DNA from: Ginglymostoma cirratum
Taxonomy: Eukaryota
Assembly: GCA_024137785.1 (NCBI GenBank)
Contig: JAHRHZ010000058.1
Span: 11,838,427-11,902,426 of the forward strand
Reading direction: 5' to 3'
DNA: 64,000 nucleotides
The position numbers and the translations under genes are program-made. This document shows positions 2,720 through 45,027 of this stretch, piece after piece (position 1 is the stretch's first letter; each line of letters opens with the position of its first letter). Under the pieces are notes generated by a model. It was not told the origin of the DNA. It saw only the letters and a list, made by a program, of their open reading frames with translations, and did not search any database.

Positions 2720-3592
2720 CAGTCCCTACTATCTGGAAGGCAGTAGATGCATGGATACATCATTAATTGCACCTTCCCCTCCAAGTCACAAAGTATCCTG
2801 ACTTGGCATTACATCACTCTTTCGGTTTCGCAGGGTCAAAATCCTGGAACTCCCTTCCTAACTGTTGCTCCATATCACATGGTGTGTAACAGTTCAAAAA
2901 GGTGGCTCATTACCATCTTCTCACTGGTGATAGAGATGTACAGCATGGAAACAGAGGCTTTGGTACAATTTATCCATGTTGACCAGATATCCTAAATTAA
3001 TCTCATCCCATTTGCCAGCATTTGGCCCATATCTCTCCCAACCCTTCCTATTCATATACCCGTCCAGATGCCTTGTAAATGTTGTAATTGTACCAGCCTC
3101 CACCACTTCCTCTGGCAGCTCATTTCATACACGCACCACTCTCTGAAAATGTTGTCCCTTAGGTCTCTTAAATTTTTCCCCTCTGACCATAAACCTATGC
3201 CCTCCAGTGCTGCACTCCCCACCCCCCGGGAAAAGACCTATCCATGCCCCTCATGATTTTATAAACTTCTAAGGTCACCCCTCAGCCTCCAATGCTCCAG
3301 GAAAATAGCTCCAGTCTCTCCTTATAGCTCAAACCCTCCAACCGTAGCAACATCCTTGTCAATCTTTTCTGAACCCTTTCAAGTTTCACAACATCCTTCC
3401 TATAACAGGGAGACCAGAATTGCATGCAATAATTCAAAAGTGGCCTTACCAATGTCTTGTACAGCCGCAACATGACCTCCCAACTCCAATACCCAATGCC
3501 CTGACCAATAGGTAATTAGATGGGCAATAAAGATCCTGGTCAATATGCTGGCCTAGCTATTGATGCCCAGACCCCAAGAATAAATTTAAAAA
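2720..3592 (+). mobile_element. Degenerate 3' end of a shark LINE, interrupted by a CR1 fragment
   Basis: Motifs ttcccctccaagtcac...gggtcaaaatcctggaactccc...ccatcttctca, resuming after 3510 with gatgggcaataaa...atgctggcctagc...gatgcccagacccc and an A-rich end. The same family occurs in reverse at 12670-13575, 34800-34910 and 51495-51680. Confidence 0.6.
2926..3510 (-). mobile_element. CR1 LINE 3' fragment (ORF2 C-terminus and 3' UTR)
   Basis: Translates to MLRLYKTLVRPLLNYCMQFWSPCYRKDVVKLERVQKRLTRML and VEAGTITTFTRHLDGYMN, typical CR1 ORF2 C-terminal segments; homologous to 6331-6920. Confidence 0.9.
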
Positions 3593-6410: not shown

Positions 6411-9200
6411 CTAAGCCTGTCGCCTATTTTTCAAGGATCTGTATCCCTCTACTCCCTGCCCATTCATGTATCTGTCTAGACACATCTTAAATGACACTAT
6501 CGTGCCCACTTCTACCACCTCCGCTGGCAATGCGTTCCAGGCACCCACCACCCTCTGCGTAAAGAGCTTTCCGCGCGTATCTCCCTTAAACTTTTCCCCT
6601 CTCACCTTGAAATCGTGACCCCTAGTAATTGTTGCTATCCACCCTGTCTATACCTCTCATGATTTTGTAGACCTCAATCAGGTCCCCCTTCAACCTCTGT
6701 CTTTCTAATGTAAATAATCCTAATCTACTCAACCTCTCTTCATAGCTAGCGCCCTTCATACCAGGCAACATCCTGGTGAACCTCCTCTGCACGCTCTCCA
6801 AAGCATCCACATCCTTTTGGTAATGTGGCGACCAGAACTGTACACAGTATTCCAAATGTGGTCGAACCAAAGTCCTATGCAACTGTAACATGACCTGCCA
6901 ACTCTTGTACTCAATACCCCGTCCGATGAATGAAAGCATGCCGTATGCCTTCTTGACCACTCTATCCACCTGTGTTGCCATGTTCAGGGTACAATGGACC
7001 TGAACACCCAGATCTCTCTGTGCATCAATTTTCCCCAGGGCTTTTCCATTTACCGTATAGTTCGCTCTTGAATTGGATCTTCCAAAATGCATCACCTCGC
7101 ATTTGCCTGGATTGAACTCCATCTGCCATGTCTCCACCCAACTCTCCAATCTATCTATATTCTGCTGCATTCTCCGACAGTCCCCTTCACTATCTGCTAC
7201 TCCACCAATCTTAGTGTCATCTGCAAACTTGCTAACCAGACCATCTATAACTTCCTCTAGATCATTTATGTATATCACAAACAACAGTGGTCCCAACACG
7301 GATCCTTGTGGAACACCATGGGTCACAGTTCTCCATTTTGAGAAACTCCCTTCCACTACAACTCTGTCTCCTGTTGCCCAGCCAGTTCTCTACCCATCTA
7401 GCTACTACACCCTGGACCCCATGCGATTTCACTTTCTCCGTCAGCCTACCATGGGAAACCTTATCAAACGCTTACTGAAGTCCATGTATATGACACCTAC
7501 AGCCCTTACCTCATCTATCAATTCTGTCACTTCCTCAGAGAATTCTGTCAAGTTGGTAAGGCATGACCTTCCCTGCACAAAACTATGCTGCCTATCACTA
7601 ATAAGCCCATTTTCTTCCAAATGTAAATTGATCCTATCCCTCAGTATCTTCTCCAGCAGCTTCCCCACCACTGACGTCAGGCTCACCTGTCTATAATTAC
7701 CTGGATTATCCTTGCTACCCTTCTTAAACAAGGGTAAAACATTAGCAATTCTCCAGTCCTCCGGGACCTCACCCATGCTCAAGGATGCTGCAAAGATATC
7801 TGTTAAGGCCCCAGCTATTTCCTCTGTCACTTCCCTCAATAACCTGGGATAGATCCCAACTGGACCTGGGGACTTGTCCACCCTAATGCCTTTTAGAATA
7901 CCCAACACTTCCCCCCTCCTTATGCCGACGTGACCTAGAGTAATCAAATATTTATCCCTAACCTCAACATCCGTCATGTCCCTCTCCTCGATGAATACCG
8001 ACGCAAAGTATTCATTAAGAATCTCACTCATTTTCTGACTCCTCGCATAACTTCCCTCCTTTGTCCTTGAGTGGGCCAACCCTTTCTCTAATTACCCTCT
8101 TGCTCCTTATGTATGAATAAAAGGCTTTGGGATTTTTCTTCACCCTGTTTGCTAAAGATATTTCATCACCCCTTTTAGCCCTCTTAATCCCTCGTTTCAG
8201 ATTGGTCCTACTTCCCCGATATTCTTCCAAAGCTTTGTCTGTTTTCCGTCACCTAGATCTTACGTATGCTTCCTTTTTCCTCTTTGCTAGTCTCACAATT
8301 TCACCTGTCATCCATGGTTCCCTAATCTTGCCCTTTCTATCCCTCATTTTCACAGGGACATGTCTGTCCTGCACTCTAATCAACCTCTCTTTAAAAGCCT
8401 CCCACATATCAAGTGTGGATTTACCCTCAAACAGCTGCTCCCAATCCACATTCCCCAGCTCCTGTCAAATTTTGCTATAGTTGGCCTTCCCCCAATTTAG
8501 CACTCTTCCTTTAGGACCACTCTCGTCTTTGTCCATCAGTATTCTAAAACTTATGGAATTGTGATGACCATTCCCAAAGGAATCCCTACTGAAACTTCAA
8601 TCACCTGGCCGAGCTCATTCCCCAACACTAGGTCCAGTATGGCCCCTTCCCGAGTTGGACTATTTACATAATGCTCCATAAAACCCTCCTGGATGCTCCT
8701 TAAAAATTCTGCTCCTTCTAAACCCCTAACACTAAGTGAATCCCAGTCAATGTTGGGAAAATTAAAATCTCCCATCACCACCCCCACCCTGTTGCTCCTA
8801 CATCTTTCCATAATCTGTTTACATATTTGTACTTCTATCTCACGCTCGCTGTTGGGAGGCCTGTAGTACAGCCCCAACATTGTTACCGCACCGTTCCTAT
8901 TTGAGCTCTGCCCATATTGCCTCACTGCTCGAGTCCTCCATAGTGCCCTCCTTCAGCACAGCTGTGATATCCTTTTTGACCAGTAATGCAACTCCTCCAC
9001 CCCTTTTACCTCCTTCTCTATCCCGCCTGAAGCATCTATATCCTGGGATATCTAGTTGCTAATCTTGCCCTTCCCTCAACCAAGTCTCAGTAATAGCAAT
9101 AACATCATACTTCCAGGTACTAATCCAAGCCCTAAGTTCATCTGCCTTACCTACTACACTTCTCGCAGTAAAACAAATGCACCTCCGACCATCTGTCCCT
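6411..9200 (-). pseudogene. CR1 ORF2 (APE endonuclease and reverse transcriptase), disrupted
   Basis: ORF pieces 9059-9337, 8551-8925, 8249-8449, 8024-8230, 7441-8079, 6622-7356 and 6411-6605 are collinear parts of one CR1 ORF2, broken by frameshifts and stops. Confidence 0.9.
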
Positions 9201-9344
9201 TTGCGTTCATCATCTGATCTCTGCCTACTCTTCCCCTTAGTCACACTGGCATCATTATCTAGTTCCTTACAGGCTTTACTTACTACCTCCTTACTGTCCA
9301 TTAACCACCTCATTTGGTTCCCATCCCCCTGCCACATTAGTTTA

Positions 9345-9695
9345 AACCCTCCCCAACAGCATTAGCAAAAGCACCCACTAGGACATTGGTTCCAGTCCTG
9401 CCCAGGTGTAGACCGTCTGATTTGTAATAGTCCCACCTTCCCCAGAACCGGTCGCAATGTCCCAAAAATCTGAACCCCTCCCTCCTGTGCCATCTCTCAA
9501 GCTACTCATTTATCCTGCCTATTCTTTCATTTCTACTCTGACTAGCATGTGGCACTGGTAGCAATCTTGAGATTGCTACTTCTGAGGTCCTACTTTTTAA
9601 ACATGGCTCCTAACTCCCTAAATTCTGCTTGTAAGACCTCATCCCGTTTATTACCTATATCATTGGTGCCTATATGCACCACAACAGCTGGCTGT
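9345..9695 (-). pseudogene. CR1 ORF1 C-terminal SGNH/GDSL esterase-like domain, disrupted
   Basis: My translation: QPAVVVHIGTNDIGNKRDEVLQAEFRELG.../SRTSEVAISRLLPVP...WGRWDYYKSDGLHLGRTGTNVL. It contains the GxND (block III) and DxxH (block V) SGNH motifs. Confidence 0.8.
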
Positions 9696-10073
9696 CATAC
9701 ACAGAATCATACATTGAATCATACACAGAATCCCTACATGTGGAAACAGGCCATTTGGCCGAACAAGTCCACACTGCCCCTCCCAACCAGCACCCACCCA
9801 AACACATCCCCCTATTGATTCAATGTAACCCAGCATTTCACATGTCCCATCCACATAGTCTACACATCCCTGGACACTATGGGACAATTTAGCAAAGCCA
9901 ATCCACCCTAACCTGCACATCTTTGGACTGTGGGAGGAAACCCAGAGCACCTGGTGGAAACCCACGCAGATACAAGGAGAATGTGCAAATTCCACACAGA
10001 CAATCATCCACACATGGAATCAAACCCAGGTCCCTGGCGCTGTGAGGCAGCAGTGCTAACCACTGTGCCGCCC
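9696..10073 (-). mobile_element. HE1-type tRNA-derived V-SINE
   Basis: Minus-strand head GGGCGGCACAGTGGTTAGCACTGCTGCCTCACAGCGCCAGGGACCTGGGTTTGATT (A/B boxes), V-domain core TCCCACAGTCCAAAGATGTGCAGGTTAGG, and a tandem 12-nt tail repeat. Confidence 0.9.
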
Positions 10074-13000
10074 TTGCTTTTCATGTTGTTTAGAATTTGT
10101 TTCAATAGACAAGACAGTCACACCTGATGGATCATTTCTCTCAGTATTCCAAGAGTATGAGACAATGCATGCTTTGTAAAGGAATATAAAGTTTTTTTTA
10201 TTGTGAAAGGCATTTTTGGCTTAAATTTGAATCTTTGTTCTTCTTAAAATGACTCTTCATGCATCTTTTCTCCTAATTTTCTTTATTTAAATTCATGGTA
10301 CATTATAAGGCTTCGTGATGGGACTTGTGTCATTACATCTAATTATTTTGGGGTGATAAGAGGAAAGAAGAGGAGGAGGGGATGGTCCAAAGACCGGATG
10401 ACTACCACCTTAATTCTAAAACAAGTCTGCCGCCATTACACCTTGTACTGGGTCCACTTTGGCCTTGTAATACTTTGACACCAAAGGGGAAAAATTACCA
10501 AGGTACTCTGATAAACAAAAACGTTCCCTTACAGCCTACAAGATGAGAGTAGGCTTTGGCTTAGCAGCAGAAATGTCAGTAATTGTATTTGTTGCCTCTG
10601 ATTTTTGTATGAATATTGGAATGCAATTCTTACAGTACGGCATTTGGCTCGAAATAAAAGTCACAATTATGTGGATATGTATCAGTATTTAAAAATACGT
10701 TAACTGCAGCAAAGTACCAAAATGAACAACGTAACTGTGATAAAGTCACCTCATACAACAAAATGTCAAATCCGGCTTATTAACATTGCAGAGTTCCTCA
10801 TTACTTCTTGCCTTCACCACTGGTGGTGCATCTATATCTCAGCATCCAAAAGACAATTCAGCAAGAGGACTTCTTTTGCATTCTCCATTCGGAGTAGTGA
10901 AAACACAGAAGTGTACTGAGTCTGTGGGTGGTTTGAATGTGGGCTTGTGTCCATTGTGGGCCATAGCTTAACAGCGCTGCAACCTTGTTTCAGCTCAGAC
11001 TCTTCACGGCCAGTGAAAAGAGAACACAACCTCCTGGTTGTCATTCTAGACTAGATTCTAGAAAATAAGCAGCACCAGTGATTCACACATCACATTGTTG
11101 AAATATTACTGAATGAAGAATAAGCAGAGCAGTTAAATGTATAACCTCCAACGTAAGACCAAAATCTGTGAAGTAAAAATAGCACTGGTTCTGATTTCAC
11201 TTCTTTAGAAAATTGCATCTAAAACACATATCTGCTGTGTACTGCAGTTAATACTAATTCTACACTACACTGGTAGTATTTTCTGTAATTCTTCCTCTTG
11301 ACTCTTCAGATAGGAAGGCTTTATAAGCTCCAATGCACCAAATAATATGAATTCAAGTTTAGATCTCCAGGTAACTCAGCATACAGAACCAAAAACCACA
11401 ACTAATTTGCACAAACCAACTAATCCATCTAGTATGTTTCTCCATGCATTAGTTGCTGTCATAGCTTGTCTGGTTTGCAGAGTGATTGGAAATGGAAACA
11501 GAACTAAATACGTATTGAAGGGTAGATCAACACCATCAGTACTTATGATTAAATAACAAAATCTCAAAGTATCTTTGTGAAGGCATAAAATAAGTTAGTG
11601 AAAGGAATGTAAGGAAATGCTGGTAGAATGAAATGAAGTGATGGAGGCTAGTAATTGCACTGAATGGCTTGTGTCTGTGCTTTAAATTCTCCATAATATT
11701 CAAAGAGAAAAACTGTTTGGATTGTCAAATGAGAAACTCAGTGCTTCAAAGACCAATCATGCCATGTTGTCTCTATAGTGAGATGAAAATTTGAAACATG
11801 TTTAAAATCCTGTTTGAAGTCAGTTTTCCTTACTGCAATCTAAAAATTACTCTGAGACATCAGGAGTAGAACTCCAGCTGTTGTACAATATCGAAGACTG
11901 TATTGTTTTTTCCCTTCCTTCATCAGTCAACAAAAAAAAAATAAAAGAAACAGTGTAAGCAACAGTAGCTGATTACTATCTACAGGCCTGTAATCTTAGT
12001 GGAGCCATCTAGACTGATGCAAGCTTTCCAAAGTTAAAATTGTCAGTCTTAGATCCTCCCATATGTTCCCCTGTTTAGGATGGTGGAGCAGACAAACTTG
12101 GCCTCTAATGCTCCAACCCTGAGTCCAGAACATCAATCTACTGCCTTGTATATCACATGTGTTTTTGCCACTGGGTCAATTCTTTCCAAACGGTAACTAC
12201 GGCAGCAGTGTAACTTTTACTTATCTCCACCCCATATGGGTTTCCACACACATTTGCTCACTCCTCTCCCTCCAGTTGGAAAAACCTCTTTGGACTCCAA
12301 TGCGTCAAATGAGGCTATTTCTCATCCAGTGATGGGTCAAAGCTCTGACATGAAAACATGGTAAAATAATCACCTTCAATACTTATTAGTGAATTCTGTG
12401 CTTCATTCTATGATGCAAACTGTGTGTGTACATTCCAACTATAATTATAGCTGCCTTACCATCTAAATCTCTGTAAATAATTTGAAATCATATACACAGA
12501 CTCAAAAGCAATGGGATAGGTATCTTCAAAGCTTTTAATTATGTGTTCTTTCTCCTTTGATCCCTTCTGCTGCAGTTTTTCCAGCTGTTTCCCAGGATGA
12601 TGGACCAGTGAAGCATTTTCTCATACTTGGAATACAAAGGTAATAGATGATGTATGAAGGAGTTACTTCTTTTATTTCACAGGATATGGGCAATGTTGAC
12701 TATTCCTAGCTAAAGGTGGTGGTCAGATGACCTTAACTCAGGCTGTTCGTGTGGTGTAGGGTCATCCACAGAGCTTTCGGGGAGGGAGTTCCTGAATTTA
12801 GATCTAGTGATTGTAAAGGGACTGTTATATGGTTTCATGTCAGAATAGGGCATCCTTTGGAGGGAATCTTGCAGGATGTGGTGTTCACAACATCTGCTAC
12901 CCTTGCCCTTGTGATTGCTAAGAGTCATGGGTTGGCAAGTACAGTTAGAGGAGCCTGGTTGAGTTGCTCCAGTGCGTTTTGTAGCTGGTACACTGCTGGC

Positions 13001-13130
13001 ACTGTTTGTCATGAAGGATCTCAGTGTTGAAGGTGGTGGATTGTCTGTCAATTAAACAGACTCTCTTTTTACAAAAACAAAGTTGCTGGAAAAGCCCAGC
13101 AGGTCTGGCAGCATCCGTGAAAGAAAAAAC

Positions 13131-13170
13131 AGAGTTAATGTTTCGGATCGGGTGACCCTTCCTCAGAACT
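13131..13170 (-). ncRNA. Minimal type I hammerhead ribozyme motif (slightly decayed)
   Basis: Minus strand: AGTT-CTGAGGA-A-GGGTC-ACCC-GATCC-GAAA-CATT-AACT. The CUGANGA and GAAA cores, stem II and stem I (AGTT/AACT) are present; ACGT in stem III has decayed to ACAT. Confidence 0.65.
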
Positions 13171-13175
13171 TCCTC

Positions 13176-13216
13176 AGTTCTGAGGAAGGGTCAGTGGACC
13201 CAAAATGTTAACTCTG
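13176..13216 (+). ncRNA. Minimal type I hammerhead motif, probably inactivated
   Basis: AGTT-CTGAGGA-A-GGGTC-AGTG-GACCC-AAAA-TGTT-AACT. Stem II is perfect, but GAAA has become AAAA and ACGT has become ATGT (CpG decay). Confidence 0.6.
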
Positions 13217-13734
13217 ATTTTTCCTTCACAGATGCTGCCAGACCTGCTGGGCTTTTCCAGCAACTTTGTTTCCTGATTTACAGCATCCACAGTTCTTTCT
13301 TTCATTTTTTATTTAGACTCTCTTTTTATCCTGGATGGTATCAAGCTTCTTGAGTACTGGCACTGTACTCATCTAGGCAAGTGGAAAGCATCCATCACAC
13401 TGCTGATTTGTGTCTTGTAGGTGGAGGACAGGCTTTGGAAGGTCAGTTACTCACCACAGTGTTCCTCTAGCTCTCGTAGCCACAGTATTTATACAGCTAG
13501 TCCAGATCAGTTTCTGGTCAATATTAAGCCAGGATGTTGATAGCCAGTGATACTGATACCATCGAATGAAAGGTTTTCCTTTTGCAGCCGTCCACCTTTG
13601 TGCTAGTGCCCAGCTCTGCTATCAGACATGATGGTTCTTCAAAGTGTTTGATTATGTCGCATTGACTTACATAACCTGCTTCAGGGCTGTAACTGCTATC
13701 AGCCTAAACTGTGTGCATCACAGAATTGATTCAG

Positions 13735-14210
13735 TGAAGGAGGCCTTTGGGGACTCATCATGTCTGCACCAGCTCTCCAAACGAACAATGAACCTAGTCT
13801 CTTTCTCCCATCATCTCCTCATAACCCTATTCATTCCAATTCGCCTTGAATGTTTCAACGGAACCTGCCTCTAAGAGTCTCAGGCTGGGCATTCCAGACC
13901 ATAACCACGTGCCATGCGAAAATGTCCCTATTGTTCCTTTAATGAATTACTTGCCATTTGTGGCTCTTGCTCTTGATTCTTTGCACAAGCAGGAATAATT
14001 TCTCCCTCCCCACTCTCTCCAGACGACTTACAATTGAGTGTCTCGATCAAATCTCCTCTAAGCTTTCTTTTCATGCAAGTCAAACATTCTTAACTTCTCT
14101 AATCTATCTTCTTAACTGAAATTTCTTATCCCTAGAACAATTCTCAATCTTTTCTGCACTCATCCCAATGCTTTCACCTCCTTCCTAAAACGCAGCGCCC
14201 ATAATTATAA
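13735..14210 (-). mobile_element. Old CR1/L2-type LINE 3' fragment
   Basis: ggaggcctttgg...cattccagaccataaccacg...tcaaatctcctct...aatcttttctgcactc...tccttcctaaaa: the degenerate reverse of a CR1/L2 ORF2 end and 3' UTR. Confidence 0.6.
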
Positions 14211-14664
14211 GGTGATCTTCCACAACAGTTGTCTTTCATCCTACCTTAATTAATATTTTCAGCAGATACTTTGATTCCTTTAAAAGCTCTCTTAAATACG
14301 TCAATGTTCATTGACTAAATTACTCCATGAGATAGAATAAAATTACAGAAGATAGTGAAATATGTTCAATCTTATCCCCCTCTCCTCCTAATTCTAGAAA
14401 CATCTCCTGAATTCCTTATTGGACTTATTAATGACCATATTGTGTTTAGAGACCTTAATTTTGAACGTCCCTGGTTACCTTCTGTTCTTGATACTGGGCA
14501 CTACACGAGATGTTCTTCACTGTGATAAGCAAGGCACGATGTACTTTTCTCATTGAGAAAGGAGGAGGTAACTTTTCCATAAACTTGCGAAACTTACAGA
14601 AACAAAATAGTGTTGACTGAAGGATAAAGTTTAGTTTGCGTACTGTATATTAACTCCTCTGTTC

Positions 14665-20836: not shown

Positions 20837-21213
20837 ACAGAGAAAAAAAAAAATCCTTAACCTATGGAGCAGTGGGTCTTGAACCCGGGTCTCTCAGTCG
20901 AGAGATAGGGAGACTACGACTGCACAACGACAGGGCACAAACATTTTTTAATCCACCTGCTCAGAGATGTCACTGCATATCTCAGAACAGGTGGGACTTG
21001 AACCCAGATCTCCTGGCTCAAAGACAAGAACACTACCACTGCGCCACAAGAGCACTTCTGACCTGTCGTACATTTCTTTATTTAGCCTATTTTTCCAATC
21101 AACTTGGTCAGAAATGTTATTACACAGCTTTAGAGCAGGTGGGACTTGAACCCAGGCCTCCCAGACCAGAGGCAGGGACACTATCACTGTGCCACGAGAG
21201 CTCTTGAGCCGTT
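20837..21213 (-). mobile_element. Composite SINE with three tandem tRNA-like heads
   Basis: Three ~70-nt heads (about 21133-21203, 20983-21055, 20866-20938), each with an A box (TGGCACAGTG-like) and a B box (GGTTCAAGNCC); flanked by 13-bp direct repeats ttgacctgtctta (20824-20836, 21214-21226). Confidence 0.75.
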
Positions 21214-23508
21214 TTGACCTGTCTTACAAGTATAAAACAGTGAGTAGCATCTGTGGGGATAGTTATTAGGATAGTCAAGATGGTTCCACTGGTCAAGTTT
21301 GAGTTCAGAAGGTGTGCTCCTTCCATTTTTGAACACTAAGAAAACAAATACCAGCTCCCAATAACAAAGGCAAATAATAGTATGATAAGTTTAAATTCAT
21401 GAGAGTTTGGTTGCAAACTGATTCAAACCCGAGTAGCAAATACTATTCATTCAGATAATTCCACATGCTAATCTATCTTGATCTATAAAAGCAAAAATTG
21501 ACCATATGCTAGAATTGTTGCCTGTGACACTGCAAATTTTTTGCTTGACAAAAGGTAGCATTGGAGAAGTCCTCTCCTCCAATGCTTTACTTTAGGGATA
21601 GAAATGTATTATGTTATGTAGGCAAATTTGCTGTAATTAAGTTTCAAGTCTTCGTGAGGTGCAATAAATCAAATTAAACCCAACTACGAGACTACTGTCC
21701 TGATTACCTCAGGTATGTTAGGGAACCACAACTTAAATACTCAATCACAAGTTATTGTAATGTTGTAACATGCTTAAAAATAAAACAACTTAGTTTCATT
21801 TCATAAAAGAAAGCGCAACTTGCACTGTACAATATACAGTGAAAGTAGTTTCCTTTTTAAATGTTTTCTTTAAAAAAGTGAAAAACATGGAGATGACTAA
21901 ATACAAGGAACAAAAATTCTGTACAATATTCAGTAAATGTTGAACCTTGGTGTGCTGTTGGAAACAGGACTAAATGCTTCAACGAAACTGGTCAAGACAA
22001 AAGTCAAGTTAACCCAGAGCAAGATTCCTTTGAGAAACCACACCAGCCAGCTAACTTCCCATCCATCAGAGGAAGTCACAGAGATTGTAACCTCATTTTA
22101 AATACTGTAGTCCCTTTCCTGCAGTGTGCCCTGGTCACTCAATAAGGTATGGTAAAGAGTGGGTCTTACAGAAGGGAAGGCAATGGAATTCAGGACTGAG
22201 GCAGCTGCAGTAGTATCCAGTGAAAGATCAGTGTATTAACAGGGGAGCTGCTCTCCTGGCTGCAAATAGCAGCTTCCGCTCAGGAGAAGCTGCTAGGCTC
22301 TGATTGATGCAAAAGTCCCTCTGTTTACAAAGCTTGCTGAGGCTCTGGCCTGCAGAAGAACCTTGCATGGATTTGAGCAGGCAAGGAACCTGCTTATTTG
22401 TCAGTGCCCTGCCTGCCAGGTGAGAAGGAATAACATTAACCCCATTCCTTTGAGCTTAACTGTGGATGTGGATCAAAGGTCCCAATAACTCAGTCTAATG
22501 TGTTTGAAGTTGGAGTGCCGCATGAGGTGTGAACAGGGTCTGTCTACAATGATAAATTACTAAACTATAGCCAGTGGTGAGTTATTTTATGAAAGGTTCA
22601 AGTAGCAGAAGGCACAGCAGATGTATTCTCTATAGACTCTGTAGATGTGCCAGTTTCCAGGGACCTCTTAGCTCCTCTGGAACTGCGACAGCACTCAGGT
22701 GCTGGGAATGACAGCCAAGTCAAACTGCATGGCCTGGGGGATGTACTGGCTCCACATGGGCAGCACTCCAGAGGCACTTCAAGCAAACCCGAGACAGTGT
22801 GTCTGCGGCAAAATAAAAAACAGCAACAAGGGGCTCAGCTGCAGCCGATACCATCAAACGCTGACTGTCTACAGCCCGGAGTCATTTACTAGGTGTGGGA
22901 TTGCAGCAGACTGAAAATGGAGACTCACGGAAGTTTCAAGTGTCTGTGGGTTGCTGCTTTTGATAATTTTAGACCCCCTTAGTTGATCCATTCTTAGCTA
23001 ATGACATTAAACTTTTGATGGTTTCAGTTTCCAACTGTGTCTTGTCCCACTTCCTGTACTACATTAAGACTGTTACTGGTTTCAGATAACCTAAACCCAG
23101 CTACAATGATGAGAGCAGATTAAAATATAGATTTGGTGGAACTAATCCAAATAAATCCACAGAATTTAGTTTAATAATGCAACGTATAGTTGGAGTAAAT
23201 TGAAAAGCAGGACAGAGGCTGAAAGCACATCTTTCTAATGGTACAGATATCCAGTATTTCTCAGTTTTAATTAACAAGCCTTCATGTTATAGTGCAACTT
23301 AGTTTTGAAAACAGTAAATGCGTTGTTGAAGAGAACATGGATAGATGGTGATAGAAGGTGACATGGATAGATCCCTTACTCGGATTACATAAAACTGTTT
23401 CACGAAAGCACTCAAACTCCTTCAGACATAGCACACATCTGAAATATTGTCTTTATTTAGTTTCAGCTCAGGACAACAGGAAAGGAATATTTAAAGCTGA
23501 CAAAATGA

Positions 23509-23824
23509 GGGTGGCTCAGTGATTAGCACTACTACCTCATAGCACCAGGGACCCACGTTCGATTCCAGCTTTGGGCGACTGTCTGTGCAAACTCCACACA
23601 TTCTCCCAGTGTCTGTGTGGCTTTCCTCCGGCTGCTCTGGTTTCCCCCCAACAGTCCAAAGATGTGCAGGCTAGGTGGATTGGCTATGCTAAATTGCCCA
23701 TAGTGTTCAGGGATGTGTAGATTAGGTGGGTTATAGGGAGATGGGTCTGGGTGGGATGCTCTCAGGGTCGGTGTGGACATATTGAGCCGATGGGCCTGTT
23801 TCCACACTGTAGGGGTTCTATTCT
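23509..23824 (+). mobile_element. HE1-type V-SINE
   Basis: GTGGCTCAGTGATTAGCACT...GTTCGATTCCAG head; CAGTCCAAAGATGTGCAGGCTAGG core; GGGCCTGTTTCCACACTGTAGGGGTTCTA tail. Confidence 0.92.
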
Positions 23825-26548
23825 AAAAAAAAAATGCCAGTTTTTGGGGGAAAAAAAAAAAATCAGTGTCTGAACATTCTAGACTACAGATTTAGTTGCA
23901 GGAGACTCCACTCAAGAATTGCCTTGATCGGAGTAGATCAAGTTTGTTGTGGATTTGACCATTGCTCTTATTATCCAGTCTTATTGTAATCTTGTTTCTT
24001 GAAATCTTGAATGGTTCAAATTAATTAGTCCATTTTATCCTACATCTTATGTAATTCAGTTGATGGATTTTGTCTACAGGACAAAATTTTCACTATGAAG
24101 TCACCTTTCAAGATGTTAGCTTTCTTGTAACTATCGATGTGCATGGGTACTTTGAGTAATCCCACGCCATTTCAATTGATTATAATCAATGTTTGAACAA
24201 ACTGCAAATGTCAGCACTGCTAAAACAAAAAATGGACATAGTCACTGAACTAACATCTGCTGTTGTGTGTTTTACTGCACTTAACACCAGCATCACACTA
24301 CTTTCCATGCAGACTGGATTGGAAAATAAGCCATGTCTCAAAAACCAAATTTTTTGTGACTGTACATGACTCCGAAGATGAACTGATTGCCTTTCCCAAT
24401 GAACAATAAAGATGATGAAATGCAGTCGAAAACTCAAGTGCAGAAACAATCAATTCAGCTGTGACAGTTGGTATCACATTCACTGCAACTGAGAAGATTA
24501 GGGGCTGATGTAATCAGAGTGCTCAATACATCGAGTAGTGAAGGTTACTTCCGGGAGTTGGTGATTCAGCTTCAAAATTACTACTAGGCATTGGGAACAA
24601 TAACAGGAAGGATGAAATGATTTTGTTCACGTAAAAGATTTATTAGGATATAAAATGCCCCCTTCACAAGCCGTCATTGATACCATGGCAATCACAACAT
24701 CTTAGGCAGGAATCTGGTAAACGCTCGAGGAGGAATCTAATTTATTTCTGGGGAACAAGAAGAAAAATGAAATTAGGGTAATTAGCTCCTCTATGGAACT
24801 ATACTAACACCTTGAGCTGAAAGAGAACCATCTGTTCTTTAATTACAAATTTCTTTTGTAAAAGTATTGGTGAAATTGCAGGATCTTACATTAGCGAACA
24901 AGCATATTTCAGACTCCTTTGTCCAATATTTCAATTAAGATCGCTGTTAAATTAGGGAATGCATGACTCTCTGGGTTGACTTTTTAAAAGACAGTTTTTT
25001 TTTGTTTATAAGGACAGTTCCACTTGGGTCAATTTATTTTATGTTCCTCTAAAGTGTTTACCATTGAGAGACATAAAACATTGTTTCAGAAAACTTGGAA
25101 GGTGGAGTGAATCCACTTGGGCACTTTGCCGACAGGACTTGGATTCAAATTTATTCAAATTGAAGGACCAGAAGTCTACTCCCTTAGGCTCCTGTAAGAA
25201 ACAAGTATGGAGCACACTCCGTGAGCATAAGCCCATAACACAAAAACTGCTAATTCAGAACTAAGAGAGAGAATTGTCATTGAAATAGACTCGAAGGATG
25301 GTTGGAAATAGGACACAAAATGAGATATTTCTGCAGCAGGTATATACAGGGAACTGGCGCTGAGGGATTCTCTTGGTGCAGAGTAAAGTTTTATTAGCTG
25401 GAATGGAACTGGCTTGTCATTGATAATGGGTGCCTGAACCAGGATTCCCAGCTACAGGAGAGGGGCAGGGGGTGGAATTAAGTGAAACATTTGTTTCTAC
25501 AACTGTTTCCTATTCAGAAAGGCCGTAGAGCTTATTCAACAGTGCAGATAAGGTTACTGTACATACTGAGCAAGGCAGCAAATTTACCTGACATACTTTC
25601 ATAAAAATGACTAAAGAGTGGAATATAAAAGTATTTCTATGCAAATTGGTGTAGCTCAGAGAGATAATTGTCCTTTGTAATAGTCATTTGTACTATTGGA
25701 TGGGTAGCATGGAGTAAACAGACCATGGAAAGCAGTGAAGAATGACTTGTATTCCATTGTGTTGCTAACCACAACTCACCAGTAAAATATGCATTTTATT
25801 TCATAGCGAACTGATTGCCTTCAACTACCCAACTTCAGACATGAATCTGACAGCTTTCTGGAACTGTTCTTCTCTTGCCTTCCCTTTTATTTGAGCCTAT
25901 CACTCTGGAAAATATCATAAGAGTGAGCAGATCCTTTCAGAGTCCTGGCTAAATGGAATATTTAATAAGGGCCATATTTCAAGTTGGAGATCCAGTCCAA
26001 AGTTTGAACAGACACCAAAAAAGAATTATAAAGGTCAGAAAGGCCCCAGTGTAGCAGCCTAGCCTGAAAGTTGGCAAAACTCCTTACGCATGCATGTGGT
26101 TGGATTACTGCCATAAGCAGAAACCAAGCACCACACACATGAATCAGAAGCCTAACTACTGTGTTACTGGCACTTTGTAAAGGGATTGTCTCACTTTGTT
26201 GGGAGAATTGTTGTGTAGGCTCAACCTGAAACATTTAAAAATGGCTCATTCTCAAAATTACCTTCAAGCTGCTACAGTTGATCCTTTTGAAAACTAAATT
26301 ATTGACATATGCAAAGCACATCTTGAGGACAAGTATCGCTATTTGTTTAAGCACGTTGCCACAGATAAACATCTGCATGACTGCTGTGATATGTCTTCTA
26401 TTCAGTTAGATTGTCTTTTAGCTTGTTCAACCAATTATTTTAATAAATAATGGTTGGACATTCCCCCTACACGTTCGTACTTCAGTCCAACAAATTGACA
26501 TCACTATCCACGTTCACATTAGCCTCCACCGTATTTTCAGAGACTTTC

Positions 26549-26845
26549 TAGAATCCCTACAGTGTGGGAACAGTCCCTTCGGCCCAACAAGTTCACACCA
26601 ACCCTCAGAGCATCCCACCCAGACCCATCCCCCTATAACCCACCTAATCTACACATCCCTCAACACTCTGGGCAATTTATCATGGCCAATCCACCTAACC
26701 TGTACATCTTTGGACTGTGGGAGGAAACTGGAGCACCCAGCAGAAACCCACACAGACACAGGGAGAATGTGCAAATTCAACACAGACAGTTGCCCGAGGG
26801 TGGAATTGAACCCAGGCCTCTGGCACAGAGCCACCGTGCCACCCC
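26549..26845 (-). mobile_element. HE1-type V-SINE
   Basis: Reverse complement of the 23509-23824 family, with a short deletion in the head. Confidence 0.92.
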
Positions 26846-26884
26846 TTATTTATTCCCAAATATTAAATTTTTCCAATTTAAGAT

Positions 26885-26988
26885 CAAAAACAAAGTTGCT
26901 GGGAAAGCCCAGCAGGTCTGGCAGCATCTGTGAAGGAAAATCTGTGTCGGTTTTTGTTCCCGTTTTATAGCATCCGCAGTCCTTTCGG
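26885..26988. mobile_element. Short deletion derivative of the same Penelope-type element as 13072-13314
   Basis: Starts caaaaacaaagttgctgggaaagcccagcaggtctggcagcatc, like the 13072 left arm, and ends ...agcatccgcagtcctttcgg, like its right end. Exact 15-bp TSD tttccaatttaagat at 26870-26884 and 26989-27003. Confidence 0.85.
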
Positions 26989-27818
26989 TTTCCAATTTAA
27001 GATGATTTCTTTTCTGTGCACATAGACACACCATCCCAATCATTTGTAATGCTTGCTCCCACATCATAAACAGTCACAATTTAAGGCTATGCCTGTCATA
27101 GCACTTGGCGCAGTTTGATTTTTTTCCCCCAACTTCTTTGTGATCTTCATTTGGATTAGTTTGATATCTTGCTTGAGTTTGTTCTTGTTCAGTACAGTAA
27201 ACTTCCACAAACATTACCTTTATTTTCTTTTTAAGTTGGACAGACTATGGCTTGACCTTTTGTGCACCTCATTTCAGCCCTCTTCCAATTTTCCTCAGGT
27301 ACTTTAAGAAATGGGAGAGGGCCTGGGATGAGTTCTGTCAGGAGAATACAGGCATGGCTGAAGAACAAGGAGTCGTGTATTTTGCATGTAGGTGTTAGGA
27401 AAGCCACTTGTAATATCGATACAAATCAACTTCTAGGGATCTGATGACATTCTACAGGGAGGGAACATTTGTAGATCGTTAACCAATTTGATCCTATTTC
27501 CTCAAAAACTGATAGAAAAGCAATCCCAGAGACATGAGCAATGGCCTGAATAAAAAGAGGGGCAACTCGGGTGGAATTGCTCATTACATGAGACATTATG
27601 AAGTAAGTTCCCACACAAAATTGTTGTAACTGGATACAAGAGGTGACTAGATCCATATTTCTGGAACAGAAAAGGCATAGGAGGGTTTGATGCCAGAGCA
27701 GGTACATGAAGGGTTATAATTTTATTGAAAAAAAAACTGTTTCTTGGCTTATAGATAGCTTTTCCTGCTCCAGAGAGTTTCCGGAAGCTTGCGTCAGGAC
27801 AGAAGTGCTCTGATTCAC

Positions 27819-31129: not shown

Positions 31130-32973
31130 CTTTGAAACAGGAAGCATAATTACTGTGGTTTCCCCATTTGTTTGATTTCCTCTGGTATCTTTATTCTCCT
31201 AGCCAGTGCACGTTTTATACACTCTGCTAGGAGAGCTCGAGACATACGTTTCTGTAAAACTAGCTGAGTTTCAGGCATTATCTTGCATTTGTAAGCATTT
31301 TTTTTAAATTTTGAAATTGCAGGTGGTCACATCACATTTCTTCAAGGGAAATACAAAGTTTAAAAAAAAAAAAAAAAACGTGAAACTGACATTCAGTTAT
31401 TTCAACATTCCAGGTAAGATGAGACTGGAACATTGTGCTCTGGACGCTTGAAATTTTAGACCATTTGGAGAAAGAATGAAATGTTTTGGGTGGCTACTGA
31501 ATTTATAGCTAATATTAACATCCAGAAAACATACGGTATATACATTACTTCAAGAAACAAATGTCTCCTAGAACGAATACTGTTATTGTCGGAGACTCCT
31601 GGCCATGTTACACATGAATGAAACAGGGCAGACATGTTTAGACTTTCATCGGTTTGGAATGAAATGATTCAGACATAGTCATTGTAATTTGTCAGAACGC
31701 AGCCTTTTTCTTACAATGAGTTCTGACAGCAGGGAAGGTACCGAATTCTGCAGGCCGTTGGCTGATGGCAGCGTTTGATAACTGGTTCCCAATTGTGAAG
31801 ACAGAATTTTAAGCATTTTGATTTCTCTTCATAGTTCAAAGAAAACAAGGTTTTGGGCAATTTTTTTTTAAAGAAAGAAATATCATTCATGCAGCATAGA
31901 GATAACTAGATGCTTGTCATTGCAGTATCAAAAATAAAAAAGTAAATTTCAAGCCTGAAGGCCAATCGTTTTGTTGCTACTTGTTTTCAGGCCTCATCAC
32001 ATGTCCTGCAACATGCAGAGCAATTTTCTGTATAAAATATTGCTAATTAACACAGTTTTGCTGCGTTTAACTATTATAAATCATCTTTTGATTTATGAGC
32101 TTACGGTGAGGAAGCCACGAAAAAATTCCATCACTGCCTTTCTTTTTACAAAGGACAAAACTCGAGCTTAGGCAGATGCTGTGCATGCAAGCTCAAATTG
32201 GTTCATTACTAAATTACTTAGCCTTCACATGGTAACCATGTTAAATCTCCAATCTGCTTGGGCTGAAAAAACTGTTGACGTACATTAAATTGTGTAGGGA
32301 ATTTGTTATGTGGACCATAAAGCAGCATTTTCTTTGTGGTGCCTTCAATTTGTATGGAGAAACAGTTGGTGTGTTCCTAAGCAGTGACCTTGGTGTTTTA
32401 TAAATGTTACAAAGAAGCAGAAAGGTAATTACATGACAAGTAGGTCAGGTCCTGCTGAAGCCTCATTGTTCTACTGTCTTAAGGCCAGAGTCTGGGCAAG
32501 GTTCACAAATTTATTACCACTCCATGTGGGTTATCCCAAAACTTAAATTTCCATGTATGGAAAAGTGAATTCCTTCCCCTTTATTCATCATTCCCTCAGC
32601 TGATTACACAAGGCTAACTTACAGAGGATACTGCACTCAGACATTTATAAATCTTGTATTTGAAAACATAATCCAGTAAACACAATAGCTTTTGCAGAAC
32701 AACTGACGTTGTTTCTGGTCTTTATAAGATGTCCCAGTCAGTCAGATTAATAAAAGCAAGTACTTAGAAGTGTACCTCAGTGGAGAATGGCAAAAATAGA
32801 TTTACTGGATTACCAATTTATTCTCTGGTTATTCAGAACAATGCTGCTTCAGATTGAGATGATAGTTGTCATCAAAATATTGTGTCCAATTCTGGATAAT
32901 GCACTTTAGGAACAATGCTAAGCTTATTCATGTTAACAATGAAAAAACTGGCTTAAGTTGCATATGCATTTTT

Positions 32974-33258
32974 ATAGAATCCCTACTGCGTGGAAACAGG
33001 CCCTTCAGCCCAACAAGTCCACACCATCCATCTTGGAGCATCCCACACAGACCCATTCCCCTATAACCCACCTAATCTACACATCCCTGAACACTATGGG
33101 CAATTTAGCACGGCCAATCCACCTAGCCTGCACACCTTTGGATTGTGGAAGGAAACCCACAGGGAGAATGTGCAAACTCCACACAGGTCGCCAGAGGGTG
33201 GAATCAAACCCGAATCCCTGGCATGGTAAGGCTGCAGTGCTAACCACTGAGCCGCCAT
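32974..33258 (-). mobile_element. HE1-type V-SINE
   Basis: agaatccctac...ggaaacaggcccttcagcccaacaagtccacacc...gcagtgctaaccactgagccgcc. Confidence 0.92.
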
Positions 33259-35014: not shown

Positions 35015-35316
35015 CAGCACAGTGGCTCAGTAGTTAGCATTTTACTGCCTCACAGCACCAGGGGCCCAGGTTCAATTCCAGCCTCAGGTGACTGTCTATG
35101 TGGAGTTTGCACACTCTCCTTGTGTTTGTGTGGGTTTCTTCCCACAGTCCAAAGATGGGTAGGCTAGGTGGATAGGCTACGCTAAATTGCACCAGAGTGT
35201 TCAGGGATGTGTAGATTGAATGGATTATTAGGGGATGGGTCTGGGTGGGATGCTCTGATGGTCGGTGTGGACTTGTTGGGCTGAAGGGCCTGTTTCCACA
35301 CTGGAGGGATTCTATG
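35015..35316 (+). mobile_element. HE1-type V-SINE
   Basis: cagcacagtggctcagtagttagc...ggttcaattccagcc...cccacagtccaaagatg...gggcctgtttccacactggagggattctatg. Confidence 0.92.
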
Positions 35317-35727
35317 AAAAACCCTGAAATTCATTATTATGACCACAGATCATAAACCTAGATCACTAAAAAGGACATGCTAAACTTTAAATTCTGACAT
35401 GTTTTTTTAAAATAGAAAGGTGCTGACACAGATATAGCCAAAATGACTGTGAATGAACATCCAGGGGCTGTAAGGAGAGGAATACTGGAATGACATACTT
35501 ATGGGAGTTAGAAGTAGCTTTGAAAAGGAGAAATTGTATTAGAAATGGAAGTATAACCTCCTGGGAGTTCTCAAGGACTGCGAGAACGATGGAAAACAAA
35601 CAGCAATTGGAGTGAGAATGTTTTGAGAATACACAAGAACAGGACATAAAACCCATTTGAACAGTGGTGCGTGCATGCATGCTTGCTAGCGGGAGATGCT
35701 CATGAACTGAGGTTACTCATATGTGCT

Positions 35728-35869
35728 GAGATAAAAGGTACTGCAGATGCTGGAGAATCTGAGATAACAAGCATCAGAAAATTCTGATGAAGGGTTTAGG
35801 CCCGAAACGTCAAGTTTTCCTGCTCCTGTGATGCTGCTTGACCTGCTGTGTTCATCCAGCCCCACGCTT
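35728..35869 (+). mobile_element. Short Penelope-like terminal-repeat insertion carrying a hammerhead ribozyme
   Basis: 16-bp TSD gttactc(a/g)tatgtgct at 35712-35727 and 35870-35885 (one CpG-type mismatch). The body gatgctgcttgacctgctgtgttcatccagc is related to the 13-kb element's gatgctgccagacctgctgggcttttccagc. Confidence 0.8.
35779..35817 (+). ncRNA. Minimal type I hammerhead ribozyme with intact catalytic core
   Basis: aaatt-CTGATGA(35784-90)-A-GGGT-ttag-GCCC-GAAA(35804-07)-C-GTC(35809-11)-aagtt. All core nucleotides are present, with a GUC cleavage triplet and the palindromic ACGT stem III typical of PLE-associated minimal hammerheads. Confidence 0.8.
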
Positions 35870-37708
35870 GTTACTCGTATGTGCTAATGCTGGTACCAGT
35901 GCGTGGTGAAGGTTATAGTCAACAAGTTCGACATTAATCACTCCTGCACTGCAGGCATTCCATGCTAGAAACTAGTTAGCCAGTTAAAAAGATAACAGGA
36001 CAAGATCTTCTTTAGAGCTTGACATCCTTTCATAAGCAGGAGAAGGAGAGTTGTTAGGCCTTTGGAACATTGCAGACTCCAGACATTCCCTTTTATTGGT
36101 GAGCACCGGGGCATTCATTACATTTGTTCATCAGCAACCCAAGATTATGGAGCTATCACAGCTTTAGCAGAGGAACTGTTCAGAAGTCACCATCTGGGCT
36201 CCCTCCTCCAGCTTTCATAGAAAGCTATTTTTACCAGCTATCGCAGCTCAGATGTACAACTGTACATGCCCGGGAGCATTCTTCCAACAAGGCTCAAGTA
36301 CAGATCACCTTATCTCCTTCCTTGCAACCTGCAGTCATCACTTTGTACAGCAGTAAAGATACCGCAAGAAATGGGTCAGGGAAAAGGGGCTGTACAAAAG
36401 GAGGAGGAGGAAGAATGGAACAGCTGGAACAAGAGTAAAGAAGAAGGTCGAAAGGATGTGTGTAAGTGTCAACTCGAACATATTCATTCCCAAGGCTTTG
36501 TATTTTGATACCACTGCAACGCAGATAACAGGCAAACACACGTGAAAAAGATGGATACTGTCAAAAGGAGAGGAGAGAAATACTTCTAAAGAGGTGGCAG
36601 TGACATATCCACATGAAAAGAAAAAGAGAGGAGACGTACAGTCATCCTACTTTGGTGGGGGGGGGCCCCCCCAGGGAGTGAGAGACATTTTTTCAATATG
36701 CAGTCAACAAGAGACAGATACTGATATAAATAATGGGTAGGGTTTGATCTGGAGGTAACATGACAGATTCGGGGCAGAGGAGGAGTGGGTAAACGAGCAG
36801 AAGGAAAATTGTTTTCCCCAACAGCGTGGACCTAGCAAACTATGCTGTGGGGGAAATTCACAAGCATTATTGCTGAAAGCTGCTTTGGGTTCTTTTTACA
36901 ATTCCTTGAATATCTTCAAGGGAAATGTGAAATAGCTTGCCTGCAATTGAAATCAGATTTCTGCAGTGCTGCACAATTGGCTTAAAGCAAGAAATAAAAA
37001 GTTTCCATTCCACCAAGATACCTTGGATATTTTATATGTTGAAGACAGCTGAGGAGCATGAAAAGATGATGAGAGGGTTGCTGCTGCACAGTCAGACTGT
37101 AATGAGAGACTGGAGAATATGCTGAGGTTTTATTGTGACTGGAAAACATCTGCAAGTCTGTAATTTAAGTACCATTATTAGGACAGCAAAGTAGAAGGAC
37201 ACAAGAGTAGTGGTATGACAGAGCTTGCAGTCTCCACTTAGATGCCTGATCAAATTGGTGCCTGTGATTTTACAGTAAATTAAATAGATATTGTTGTCAC
37301 AGACTCTGCTGTTCTGTCACTGAATAATTATGTCTGTCTAGAGAATGAAGAGTTATTTTAAGTGAAGCTCATCACATGCCCTCATTTTCTTTGCTTCTCT
37401 TCACATTGTAAATTATTTCTCTTGCGACATTTCCTTGATTAGTTTAGATCATATTGACCAAACTAAGATTACAAATTAGGCGCAAATCATTCCCCCCCCC
37501 CACTCCACCCCAAATTTTAGATCAGCAATGCACAGCTTTATCAGCTTCAGCTCTTTTTAGATATTAACATACATATGCAGGTGAAAACAAAATCATACCA
37601 TTTACCAAGTTTTCCCTGTTTAAAATGAAAACCAATTGATAAAATTTATTAGGTTTGTTAAAGTATTGTTGCCATACTTCTCCTTAGGTTATTCCCTCAT
37701 TTAACGCT

Positions 37709-42785: not shown

Positions 42786-43524
42786 CTAAGGTAGGACTTA
42801 TCCACCAAATGACAAGATCCTGGGGTGTATTGCTAAACAAAGACCTTGGAGTGCAGGTTCATAACTCCTCCATAAGTAGAGGCAGATAGGATAGTGAAGG
42901 CAGCATTTGGCATGCTTGCTTTTCTTGGTCAGTGCATTGACTATAGGAGTTGGGAGGTCATGTGGCTGTACAGGACATTAGTGAGGCCACAAGTGGAAGT
43001 GTGCACAATTCTGGTCTCCTTTCTATACAAAGGGTTGTGAGAGATTTACAAATGATGTTGCCACAATTAGAGGGTTTGAGCTATTAGGGAGAGGTTGAAT
43101 AGACTGGGGCTATTTTCACTGGAGCAGAGGCTGGAGGGGTGACCTTAGAGGTTTTAAAAAGCCATGAGGAGCACAGCTAGGGTAAATAGACAAGGTCTTT
43201 CCACTTCCTGCCCCCAAGGTGGGGAGTCCAAAACTAGAAGGCATAGGTTTAAAGGTGAGAGGTCAAAGATTTTAAAAAAAAAGGACCGAAAGGGCAACTT
43301 TGTCCATGTAAAACAAAAAAAAAAAAAAAAAAAAACAAAGATAGAAAGTGAGCTGCCAGAGGAAAAGGAGGCTACAACTAGAGAAAAACTCATGTGGACA
43401 GGTACATGAATAGGAAGGGTTTAAGAGGGATATGGACCAAATGCTGTCGGATGGGACTAGATTTATTTAGGATATCCAGTCAGCATAGATGACTGAATTG
43501 GACCAAAAAGGGTCTGTTTCTGTG
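42786..43524 (+). mobile_element. CR1 LINE 3' fragment (degenerate)
   Basis: gaccttggagtgcaggttcat...gcatttggcatgcttgc...ttagtgaggccac...ttctggtctcc...ggggagtccaaaactagaaggcataggtttaaaggtgag...ctgtttctgtgctgtacatct; same family as 2926-3510, opposite strand. Confidence 0.85.
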
Positions 43525-45027
43525 CTGTACATCTAGGACTAATGATGTTCGAAAGGGTCAGTTCCTTTCTACCATAAGGTATGTTGAATTTTCTCAATGC
43601 ATTGGTGTACTTTACAATGCTCCATGTTGGAAAACACTCTAGAATGGAGCTGTTAGCCTTCCTGGGGCAGTGACAACCAGGGCCTGTGTTCAAAGGGATA
43701 CATTAGGGCCTAATAACTGGGGCTCAGGCCTCTAGAATTGTGGTTCTTAACCTTTTCTGTATCAAGGCACAGACTCGGGCTCCATTTCCCTTCTCATGCA
43801 CAGCAATAAAATTGCACTGGATACTACATCCAATAATAGACACAGGATCTCGGAGGTTGGAAGCAGAGAGGCATAGTCTGTAGGCCACTTGTTGAGCAAC
43901 ACTGTCATGAGACTAGTGGAAAACTAGTGCTCTAGGAAGACCAGAGCTCATGAGCGTGGGCCCTGGAGGTCATGAGCAGCACCGTGGCTTGTCATTTTTG
44001 ATCCTGCCCCTAGTGGCAGGAATGAATATTGCCTTGTACAAATCTTTACAATTGCAGCATCTGTAAAAAAGTAGTATTGTGCACCAGGACTTCCAGCAGC
44101 AGGTGGTGCCAGCAAGGGGAGGGTGGCTGGAGCGGATAAAATGGAATCTTGTTGGGGAAAAACAAAACAGGATTTCTGCACCAATCCAACATAATCCAGA
44201 GGCCATGTTTCATTGCATACCATAAACAATTCCTGGTTTATCCTCAATTTCTGTTTCTGCTTGTAAAAAACACTCGATGCCAATTACATAAATAATTGGT
44301 TTCACCATCTTTGGGGTATCCACATATTCAAAGAATGTTGCATTTCATGGTTTTTAATGCATGAAAATGTAGCAGTAATATCCCACAAGCGGGATTATGG
44401 CCGATGCCCAGTGTATTTTGAAAGTTTAGTGGTAGACATACAGTTCATTGAAGAGCAAGAATGCCTTTGTACTATTCAATACGGCATACATTTTGACTTA
44501 ATATCCCATCCAAAAGGCAACATTTGACAGGATAACACTATCCAGTCTTAGCCAGTCTCAGTGGACAGACATCCTCACTACCAATACTGTTTGGCATTTG
44601 TGCTGTAGTGATTTAGCTGTAAAGGCACTGAATATATGCACAAGGCTTCCTTCAGAGCCAGCACAGTTTAGAGTGTTTTTAAATAAAAAAAACAAACAAA
44701 AAACAGCAGACAGTACCACTTCATCTTTAAAGAAGAGTTCTGGCCTAAAAAGGGTTGGTTTCCTGTAAGTACAATAATTGTAGTTTCTACCAACAAACTA
44801 CATACCCTGTAATTTTTTGGGGTATAGTGGATGTGCATGTTTACACTCTTCAGGCCTCCTTTCCTTACTAAGTATCAGCAGCTGTAAAGCCTGCTGAAAA
44901 AGTGAAATCAGTTTGTCACAAGACACAAAACTATAATTCCTGGTTGACTGATGGTTGTGCATTTAAGTATCCTTTACACGACAAAGCAGTGTTCCAAAAC
45001 AAGTAAACTTCCCAATGATAGCTGAAT

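Follow-up and report, generated by a model that had tools for sequence, protein, structure and literature searches.

Introduction

Penelope-like elements (PLEs) typically insert as an inverted, 5'-truncated copy with a tail of 30–40 bp on one end (PMC8557442), and the inverted truncated copy and one-sided tail are likewise described in PMC8969392 and PMC3846280. In the rotifer Adineta, head-to-head inverted pLTRs, which contain the first ORF codons, occur together with palindromes at the junctions and target-site duplications (TSDs) of 8–10 bp (PMC3846280). The minimal hammerhead ribozymes of PLEs are marked by an extra base between positions 9 and 10.1, a G10.1–C11.1 pair and a palindromic 15.2–16.2 position; they are inactive as monomers and require the CpG palindrome at 15.2–16.2 to pair as dimers (PMC4209133). 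Pairs of such hammerheads on opposite strands, 100–700 bp apart, were reported in 2014, as was a truncated PLE with a second, opposite-strand motif at its 5' end (PMC4209133). Biochemical work on a Poseidon protein adds that it nicks and extends both strands in vitro, that the tail corresponds to the stretch between two reverse transcriptase (RT) start sites, and that hammerhead activity is dispensable for insertion in vitro (PMC11167929).

Here we examine an insertion at 13058–13328 of a 64-kb stretch of Ginglymostoma cirratum DNA (the window), which a preliminary description had presented as a fold-back mini-element carrying two hammerheads. Our analysis leads us to conclude that this insertion, hereafter copy 1, is most likely neither an amplified nor a functional ribozyme element, and that it represents an ordinary truncated insertion of the published type with inverted pLTR and tail.

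Results

An asymmetric inverted insertion with a templated junction

Copy 1 is bounded by a 14-bp TSD with an A+T content of 71%, whose left member (13058–13071) is identical to its exact partner at 13315–13328. This 14-mer has no further occurrence anywhere in the 64-kb window, and none of about 5000 random pairs of 40-nt windows placed 250 nt apart have even 12 nt in common, bearing out the exact duplication first described. Between the TSDs lie 243 bp, made up of an inverted, 5'-truncated and tail-less copy of the element's 3' end (13072–13170, minus strand; 99 nt long, 96 nt of it pairing with the right arm), a spacer (13171–13175), a direct 5'-truncated copy of the same 3' end (13176–13271, plus strand) and a 43-nt 3' extension, or tail (13272–13314, plus strand), which is homologous to 26953–26986. 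The inverted arms, originally put at about 95 bp around a 5-nt spacer, are real, measuring 96 nt each (13075–13170 and 13176–13271) with 90% complementarity and a separation of 5 nt. The insert is asymmetric, because the right arm alone has the tail, whose 43 nt separate it from the right TSD.

The spacer falls within a 9-nt stretch (13169–13177) that repeats left-arm positions 13158–13166 and overlaps each arm by 2 nt; it is a templated junction and not random sequence. The resulting hairpin, with a perfect helix of 41–55 bp, has a folding energy of −154.8 kcal/mol on the plus strand and −168.9 kcal/mol on the minus strand (z scores of −18 and −21), with no equally stable structure in 200 shuffles. 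The two arms are by far the closest inverted pair in the window, the next pair being 1770 nt apart.

No ORF remnant extends past about 14 codons in copy 1. The stretch 13208–13234 (plus strand) contains a branch-point-like motif, a pyrimidine tract and CAG followed at once by ATG (13232), and possibly represents the 3' splice site and start codon of the parent ORF. This acceptor-like motif with CAG-ATG lies just 3' of the hammerhead cleavage site, as it does at 26928 (minus strand) in a second copy described below. It may act as a cryptic splice acceptor and could explain fusions of such sequences to real genes by gene predictors; one gene model, P0006, joins arm sequence to a kinase C-terminal region. 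A direct repeat of the arm, that is a partial tandem forming a direct pLTR, is absent within every copy that we examined, which does not count against a PLE origin because the feature is optional in truncated copies.

Relatives in the window share the layout and differ in the junction

Searching the window with the element returned four PLE-type copies and no LINE or SINE copies. Copy 2 (26870–27003) belongs to the same family and is flanked by an exact 15-bp TSD around an insert of only 104 bp, just past a SINE-like repeat. Its inverted tail-less arm (about 26885–26946), 95–98% identical to the copy 1 arms, begins at 26885 at exactly the same outer base as the copy 1 left arm, and stops after about 60 nt, short of the hammerhead. 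Its partner is the tail by itself, a direct tail-only arm at about 26950–26988. Copy 2 therefore has no hammerhead, and its junction differs from that of copy 1. Copy 3 (35712–35885) belongs to a related family. Its 16-bp TSD contains one mismatch, and an 8-nt snap-back marks the junction of its tail arm (35728–35772, minus strand) with a tail-less arm (about 35780–35817, plus strand) that carries a hammerhead with intact core and one stem I mismatch. With both the core and the CG palindrome intact, this hammerhead would be a better substrate for a cleavage assay than those of copy 1. A fourth, older fragment of the same repeat group, near 63186–63245, is 76% identical over 51 nt, a match that nhmmer extends weakly to about 150 nt (63097–63246); no TSD is detectable around it.

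All three TSD-flanked relatives present the same order of TSD, inverted tail-less copy, direct tail-bearing copy and TSD, with copy 3 read on the other strand. In each the tail is at one end only, with a length of 43 nt in copy 1, about 36–39 nt in copy 2 and about 45 nt in copy 3, and the TSDs measure 14, 15 and 16 bp, respectively. These comparisons bear directly on whether copy 1 could be a DNA transposon of the MITE or foldback type, its 96-bp arms serving as terminal inverted repeats; its short, non-coding sequence, long inverted repeats and flanking duplication might suggest as much. The repeats are not terminal, given the 43-nt tail on one side; TSD length varies; the arms contain a PLE-type hammerhead; and copy 2 contradicts the idea, since it retains the two outer ends with almost no overlap between its arms. 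We give a DNA transposon next to no chance of being correct.

The window also contains other repeats. A CR1-type LINE at about 6600–9400 (minus strand) retains RT (PF00078) and endonuclease (PF14529) domains in frameshifted pieces, and shorter CR1-type copies, in mutually opposite orientation, lie near 2930–3510 and 42925–43535. A SINE-like repeat of about 300 bp is present in at least six copies, 79–89% alike and in both orientations (9724–10074, 23508–23821, 26535–26823, 32969–33256, 35024–35329 and 45030–45249), the closest inverted pair being 1770 nt apart; together with the CR1-type LINE it presumably constitutes the elasmobranch HER1/HE1 pair. A separate array at 20865–21205 consists of three spaced copies of a 74-nt unit, 62–80% alike with start-to-start distances of 119 and 148 nt, which look tRNA-derived.

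Twin priming by a LINE yields inversion, 5' truncation and TSDs of 10–20 bp. On these grounds, copy 1 might be an inverted 3' fragment left behind through twin priming by a LINE or SINE, for instance the window's own CR1-type element with its RT and endonuclease at about 6600–8950. Twin priming gives non-overlapping segments, whereas here the same 96 nt are found in both arms, and the element searches match the four PLE-type copies, not the window's LINE or SINE copies. This origin is accordingly highly improbable.

Two hammerhead motifs, both damaged

Each arm carries a minimal type I hammerhead motif next to the centre, and the two are on opposite strands, as the preliminary description had it; both are damaged. 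The left motif (13133–13170, minus strand) has intact core boxes and one G–U pair in stem II, and has lost its stem III palindrome through a change of 16.2 at 13139. The right motif (13176–13213, plus strand) carries a G12A substitution at 13202 and a change of 15.2 at 13206. A stem III had been claimed in each arm; in a minimal hammerhead this stem consists of no more than the two bases at 15.2/16.2, and neither arm has it intact.

A custom descriptor of minimal hammerheads, run across the whole window on both strands, gave one strict match, at 13133–13170 (minus strand), and relaxing G12 added only 13176–13213 (plus strand). Among 200 shuffles, a strict match appeared in one, a relaxed match in nine and two matches in none. 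The descriptor missed the copy 3 hammerhead because of its one mismatch in stem I, and a separate motif search recovered it. Rfam yielded no window match at the gathering score, and its ten matches with E ≤ 10 in 12900–13500 include no hammerhead family, seven being miRNA-precursor models that fit the hairpin. The Rfam miss is not a refutation, because minimal hammerheads without helix III require a custom descriptor.

The core boxes CUGANGA, GAAA and UH are present in the left arm and in copy 3, and the right arm fails through G12A, while the extra base between 9 and 10.1 and the G10.1–C11.1 pair occur in all three motifs. Across the three, helices I and II pair in 31 of 33 cells (93.9%) versus 8–55% for slid controls, with no two-sided changes. 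Stem II is pairable in every motif, and its changes, seen in three of five pairs, are one-sided in this set of three sequences. The 15.2/16.2 position reads CA in the left arm, UG (TG in DNA), a wobble at best, in the right arm, and CG in copy 3 only. We read the TG of one arm and the CA of the other as two independent decay products of one CpG, and copy 1 has likely decayed since insertion, mostly at CpG sites, with both ribozymes bearing CpG-type damage. The arms differ at 10 of 96 positions, and seven of these fall within the 38-nt hammerhead part versus three in the remaining 58 nt (Fisher p = 0.047, a borderline value that partly reflects CpG density). ADAR editing before insertion was rejected as a source of these differences, only one of the ten being readable as A-to-G against copy 2. 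We also rejected a non-LTR retrozyme: the region 12000–14500 holds no tandem array, and the two motifs are on opposite strands.

G12 acts as the general base of the hammerhead (PMC6155905), and its replacement by A lowers the cleavage rate by a factor of more than 500 in minimal hammerheads and of about a million in full-length ones (PMC2553840). All invariant core bases survive in the left hammerhead, but no partner lies near it on the same strand. This hammerhead is likely inactive, a judgement short of certainty because the invariant bases are kept and because one coelacanth hammerhead also has C and A at 15.2/16.2 (PMC4209133 supplement). Judged from these lesions, cleavage by either copy 1 ribozyme is unlikely. 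Whichever strand is transcribed, hammerhead helices I and II have a pairing probability of 0.0 in the full transcript, and forcing them carries a penalty of 41.3 and 33.7 kcal/mol, in keeping with the earlier suggestion that the hairpin masks the ribozyme; on these predictions, read-through RNA would fold into the long hairpin instead of the hammerheads.

The great stability of this hairpin, the uniquely close spacing of its arms in the window and the intact left core could be read as host co-option, with copy 1 acting either as a ribozyme that can be switched or as a dsRNA target of ADAR or Dicer. The arm differences concentrate in the ribozyme, the right arm bears the cleavage-slowing G12A (PMC2553840), and minimal PLE hammerheads are inactive as monomers (PMC4209133), the two here being on opposite strands. 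Nor did we find a host exon in the window, either in the 118 ORFs or among 49 of 98 crudely predicted exons, chosen as non-redundant and outside obvious repeats, of which one gave a weak match below the cut-off. That a host pre-mRNA contains copy 1 is an assumption, no exon having been identified in the window. If transcribed, the 41–55-bp helix could be edited incidentally, as in any such hairpin; nothing points to function, and we give co-option very little credence.

Gene models elsewhere and a search for the parent

The translated arm, compared with 1.84 billion proteins (HMMER, E ≤ 0.001), gave four matches, two of them whale shark (Rhincodon typus) gene models with 78% and 65% identity, in keeping with a shark origin of the window; the other two, P0002 and P0003, consist of low-complexity repeats and were set aside as chance matches. 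A follow-up protein search brought four further EukProt gene models among six candidates. An inverted/direct junction is readable in three of the six gene models, P0004 (whale shark), P0006 and P0007. P0007 matches both arms by tblastn, and in P0004 and P0006 the inverted part, only about six residues, was recognized by eye against the window's frames. The three junctions differ from that of copy 1 and from each other, in a sample biased to junctions with an open frame and to the query used. In all three the direct arm begins at or inside the hammerhead core. As read from the protein alone, the inverted arm of P0004 appears to end at the stem I 3' strand, which is the cleavage site, and there an overlap between its end and the complementary 5' strand in the direct arm is possible. 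Outside these collections, GTDB yielded no locus with a 22-mer and 29 with a 19-mer, none extending past 39 nt, which we attribute to chance; the phage collection searched gave no match to the element, and ESM Atlas no usable match.

Combining copy 2 with P0004, P0006 and P0007, none of four comparable junctions matches copy 1, in a sample that is small and not genome-wide. This count matters for the reading in which the fold-back is itself a non-autonomous element, its hairpin RNA being transcribed and re-inserted by PLE protein so that many copies hold a common junction. In its favour, the tail at the end of the direct arm would supply the RT start region, and pLTR sequences are enough for mobilisation in trans (PMC3846280). 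Non-autonomous derivatives of PLEs are known (PMC8557442; bioRxiv 10.64898/2026.07.22.740005), and fold-backs with two hammerheads recur (P0006, P0007). Set against this, the copy 1 junction is absent from the one same-family window copy and from all three readable gene models, and the RT start region would sit buried in a perfect helix of 41–55 bp. We consider such amplification unlikely. With junctions that differ in copy 2 and all three readable gene models, and CpG-type damage in both ribozymes, the evidence does not support the original proposal of an independent ribozyme mini-element.

A coding parent was sought in several ways. Pfam detected only the CR1-type RT and endonuclease, on three of the 118 window ORFs of at least 75 aa, and no PLE RT or GIY-YIG domain in any of them, a search that short or decayed remnants could escape. 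None of the eight protein matches contains a PLE RT or GIY-YIG domain at Pfam cut-offs, and two word-index searches of longer proteins, with no scoring candidate among three and among eleven, gave no RT/GIY-YIG parent.

Discussion

Copy 1 is probably the product of a single old insertion event in which a Penelope-like retroelement bearing an endonuclease was severely truncated at its 5' end; a parent located elsewhere in the genome would have made it in trans. The earlier attribution to PLEs is supported in that the motif fits the published minimal hammerhead of these elements and the layout fits published PLE insertions. Family membership is thus inferred from structure and motif, with no RT-bearing parent among the ORFs and proteins searched. 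Several observations temper this reading: no RT or GIY-YIG is linked to these ends in those ORFs and proteins, the 14–16-bp TSDs exceed the 8–10 bp of the rotifer paper (PMC3846280), stem II changes are one-sided in three sequences, the Fisher test is borderline and the junction sample is small.

We propose that an RT/GIY-YIG protein would nick both strands of an A+T-rich target, 14 nt apart, and that each 3' end would prime reverse transcription of the same region of element RNA, one cDNA starting from the tail-less site and the other about 40 nt further 3'. Both cDNAs of copy 1 would stop at the 5' edge of the hammerhead and be joined head to head via the 9-nt templated re-copy with its 2-nt overlaps, a combination of microhomology and templated synthesis, and fill-in would generate the TSD. 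This scheme builds on the two-strand, two-start-site behaviour of the Poseidon protein in vitro (PMC11167929). Two hammerheads would be present in copy 1 because the hammerhead lies within 100–140 nt of the start sites. Self-priming on an antisense template has also been put forward to explain palindromic head-to-head junctions (PMC3846280), and the junction data here are compatible with that route and with two-strand priming alike.

The positions at which the arms end hint at a further regularity. Of the six arm 5' ends in the three window copies, three are located 2–6 nt before the catalytic core, none extends beyond the 5' edge of the hammerhead, and the remaining three are shorter (one about 7 nt 3' of the cleavage site, two with tail only). 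In the Penelope element of D. virilis, transcription starts 46 bp before an intron that ends at position 491 (PMC2377424), and the hammerhead core starts at 496 (PMC4209133 Table S1). It is therefore plausible that a fixed boundary of the RNA, or a hard stop, lies at the ribozyme's 5' side, with each start site supplying one arm. These data hint that the pile-up at the hammerhead reflects run-off cDNAs primed on both target strands. We tentatively extend this to the idea, for which we would put the chances well below even, that shark PLEs mass-produce 'double run-off' mini-insertions, each with one tail-less and one tail-bearing arm whose ends pile up at the ribozyme.

As a single locus, copy 1 matters little, being one decayed copy of a repeat present four times in 64 kb with a layout already described. 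The formation of PLE inverted ends is itself described as unresolved (PMC8557442), and very short copies such as these offer a mechanistic trace in which the two primed ends, their junction and the TSD can be read together as one unit. If true, the double run-off rule would be a genomic read-out of the PLE integration cycle. Should the tail rule and the pile-up hold over thousands of shark copies, the in vitro result of two strands and two start sites (PMC11167929) would be tied to real insertions. Short perfect hairpins in shark RNA would also arise in abundance from copies of this kind.

Full-text literature, with few subscription papers covered, yielded no published account of this shark family or of arm ends piling at the hammerhead edge. 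The parts of PMC4209133 covered here include no shark example of a PLE minimal hammerhead. The retrozyme preprint (bioRxiv 10.64898/2026.07.22.740005) sampled one chondrichthyan genome, and its supplements might list the family.

Compared with the endonuclease-bearing PLEs Penelope/Poseidon and Neptune (PMC8557442, PMC3846280), copy 1 shares the inverted truncated copy head to head with a direct copy, the tail on one arm, the TSD, the A+T-rich target, the hammerhead near the 3' end and the ATG downstream of it; unlike them, it has no ORF remnant beyond about 14 codons and an insert of 243 bp. Its family also departs from the Adineta elements in TSD length, 14–16 bp here versus 8–10 bp (PMC3846280). 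Like the metazoan minimal hammerheads of PMC4209133, those described here have a 4-bp helix I, a core box with one extra base, a helix II of 4–5 bp closed by G10.1–C11.1 and a helix III reduced to a two-base palindrome. In contrast to the opposite-strand pairs in that work, the copy 1 motifs are just 5 nt apart and both mutated. Non-LTR retrozymes (bioRxiv 10.64898/2026.07.22.740005) are similarly non-coding, derived from PLEs and equipped with a type I hammerhead, yet they form head-to-tail tandem units with ribozymes on the same strand, whereas copy 1 is arranged head to head. A biochemical parallel is Anolis carolinensis Poseidon in vitro, which has two 3' end positions separated by roughly one tail length, can use either strand as primer and carries a hammerhead close to the ORF start (PMC11167929); the main text of that study does not discuss inverted insertions or TSDs, and the connection to the copy 1 layout is one that we draw here. 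Copy 1 is of a kind already known, a Penelope-type insertion that is truncated and decayed and whose two minimal hammerheads are mutated.
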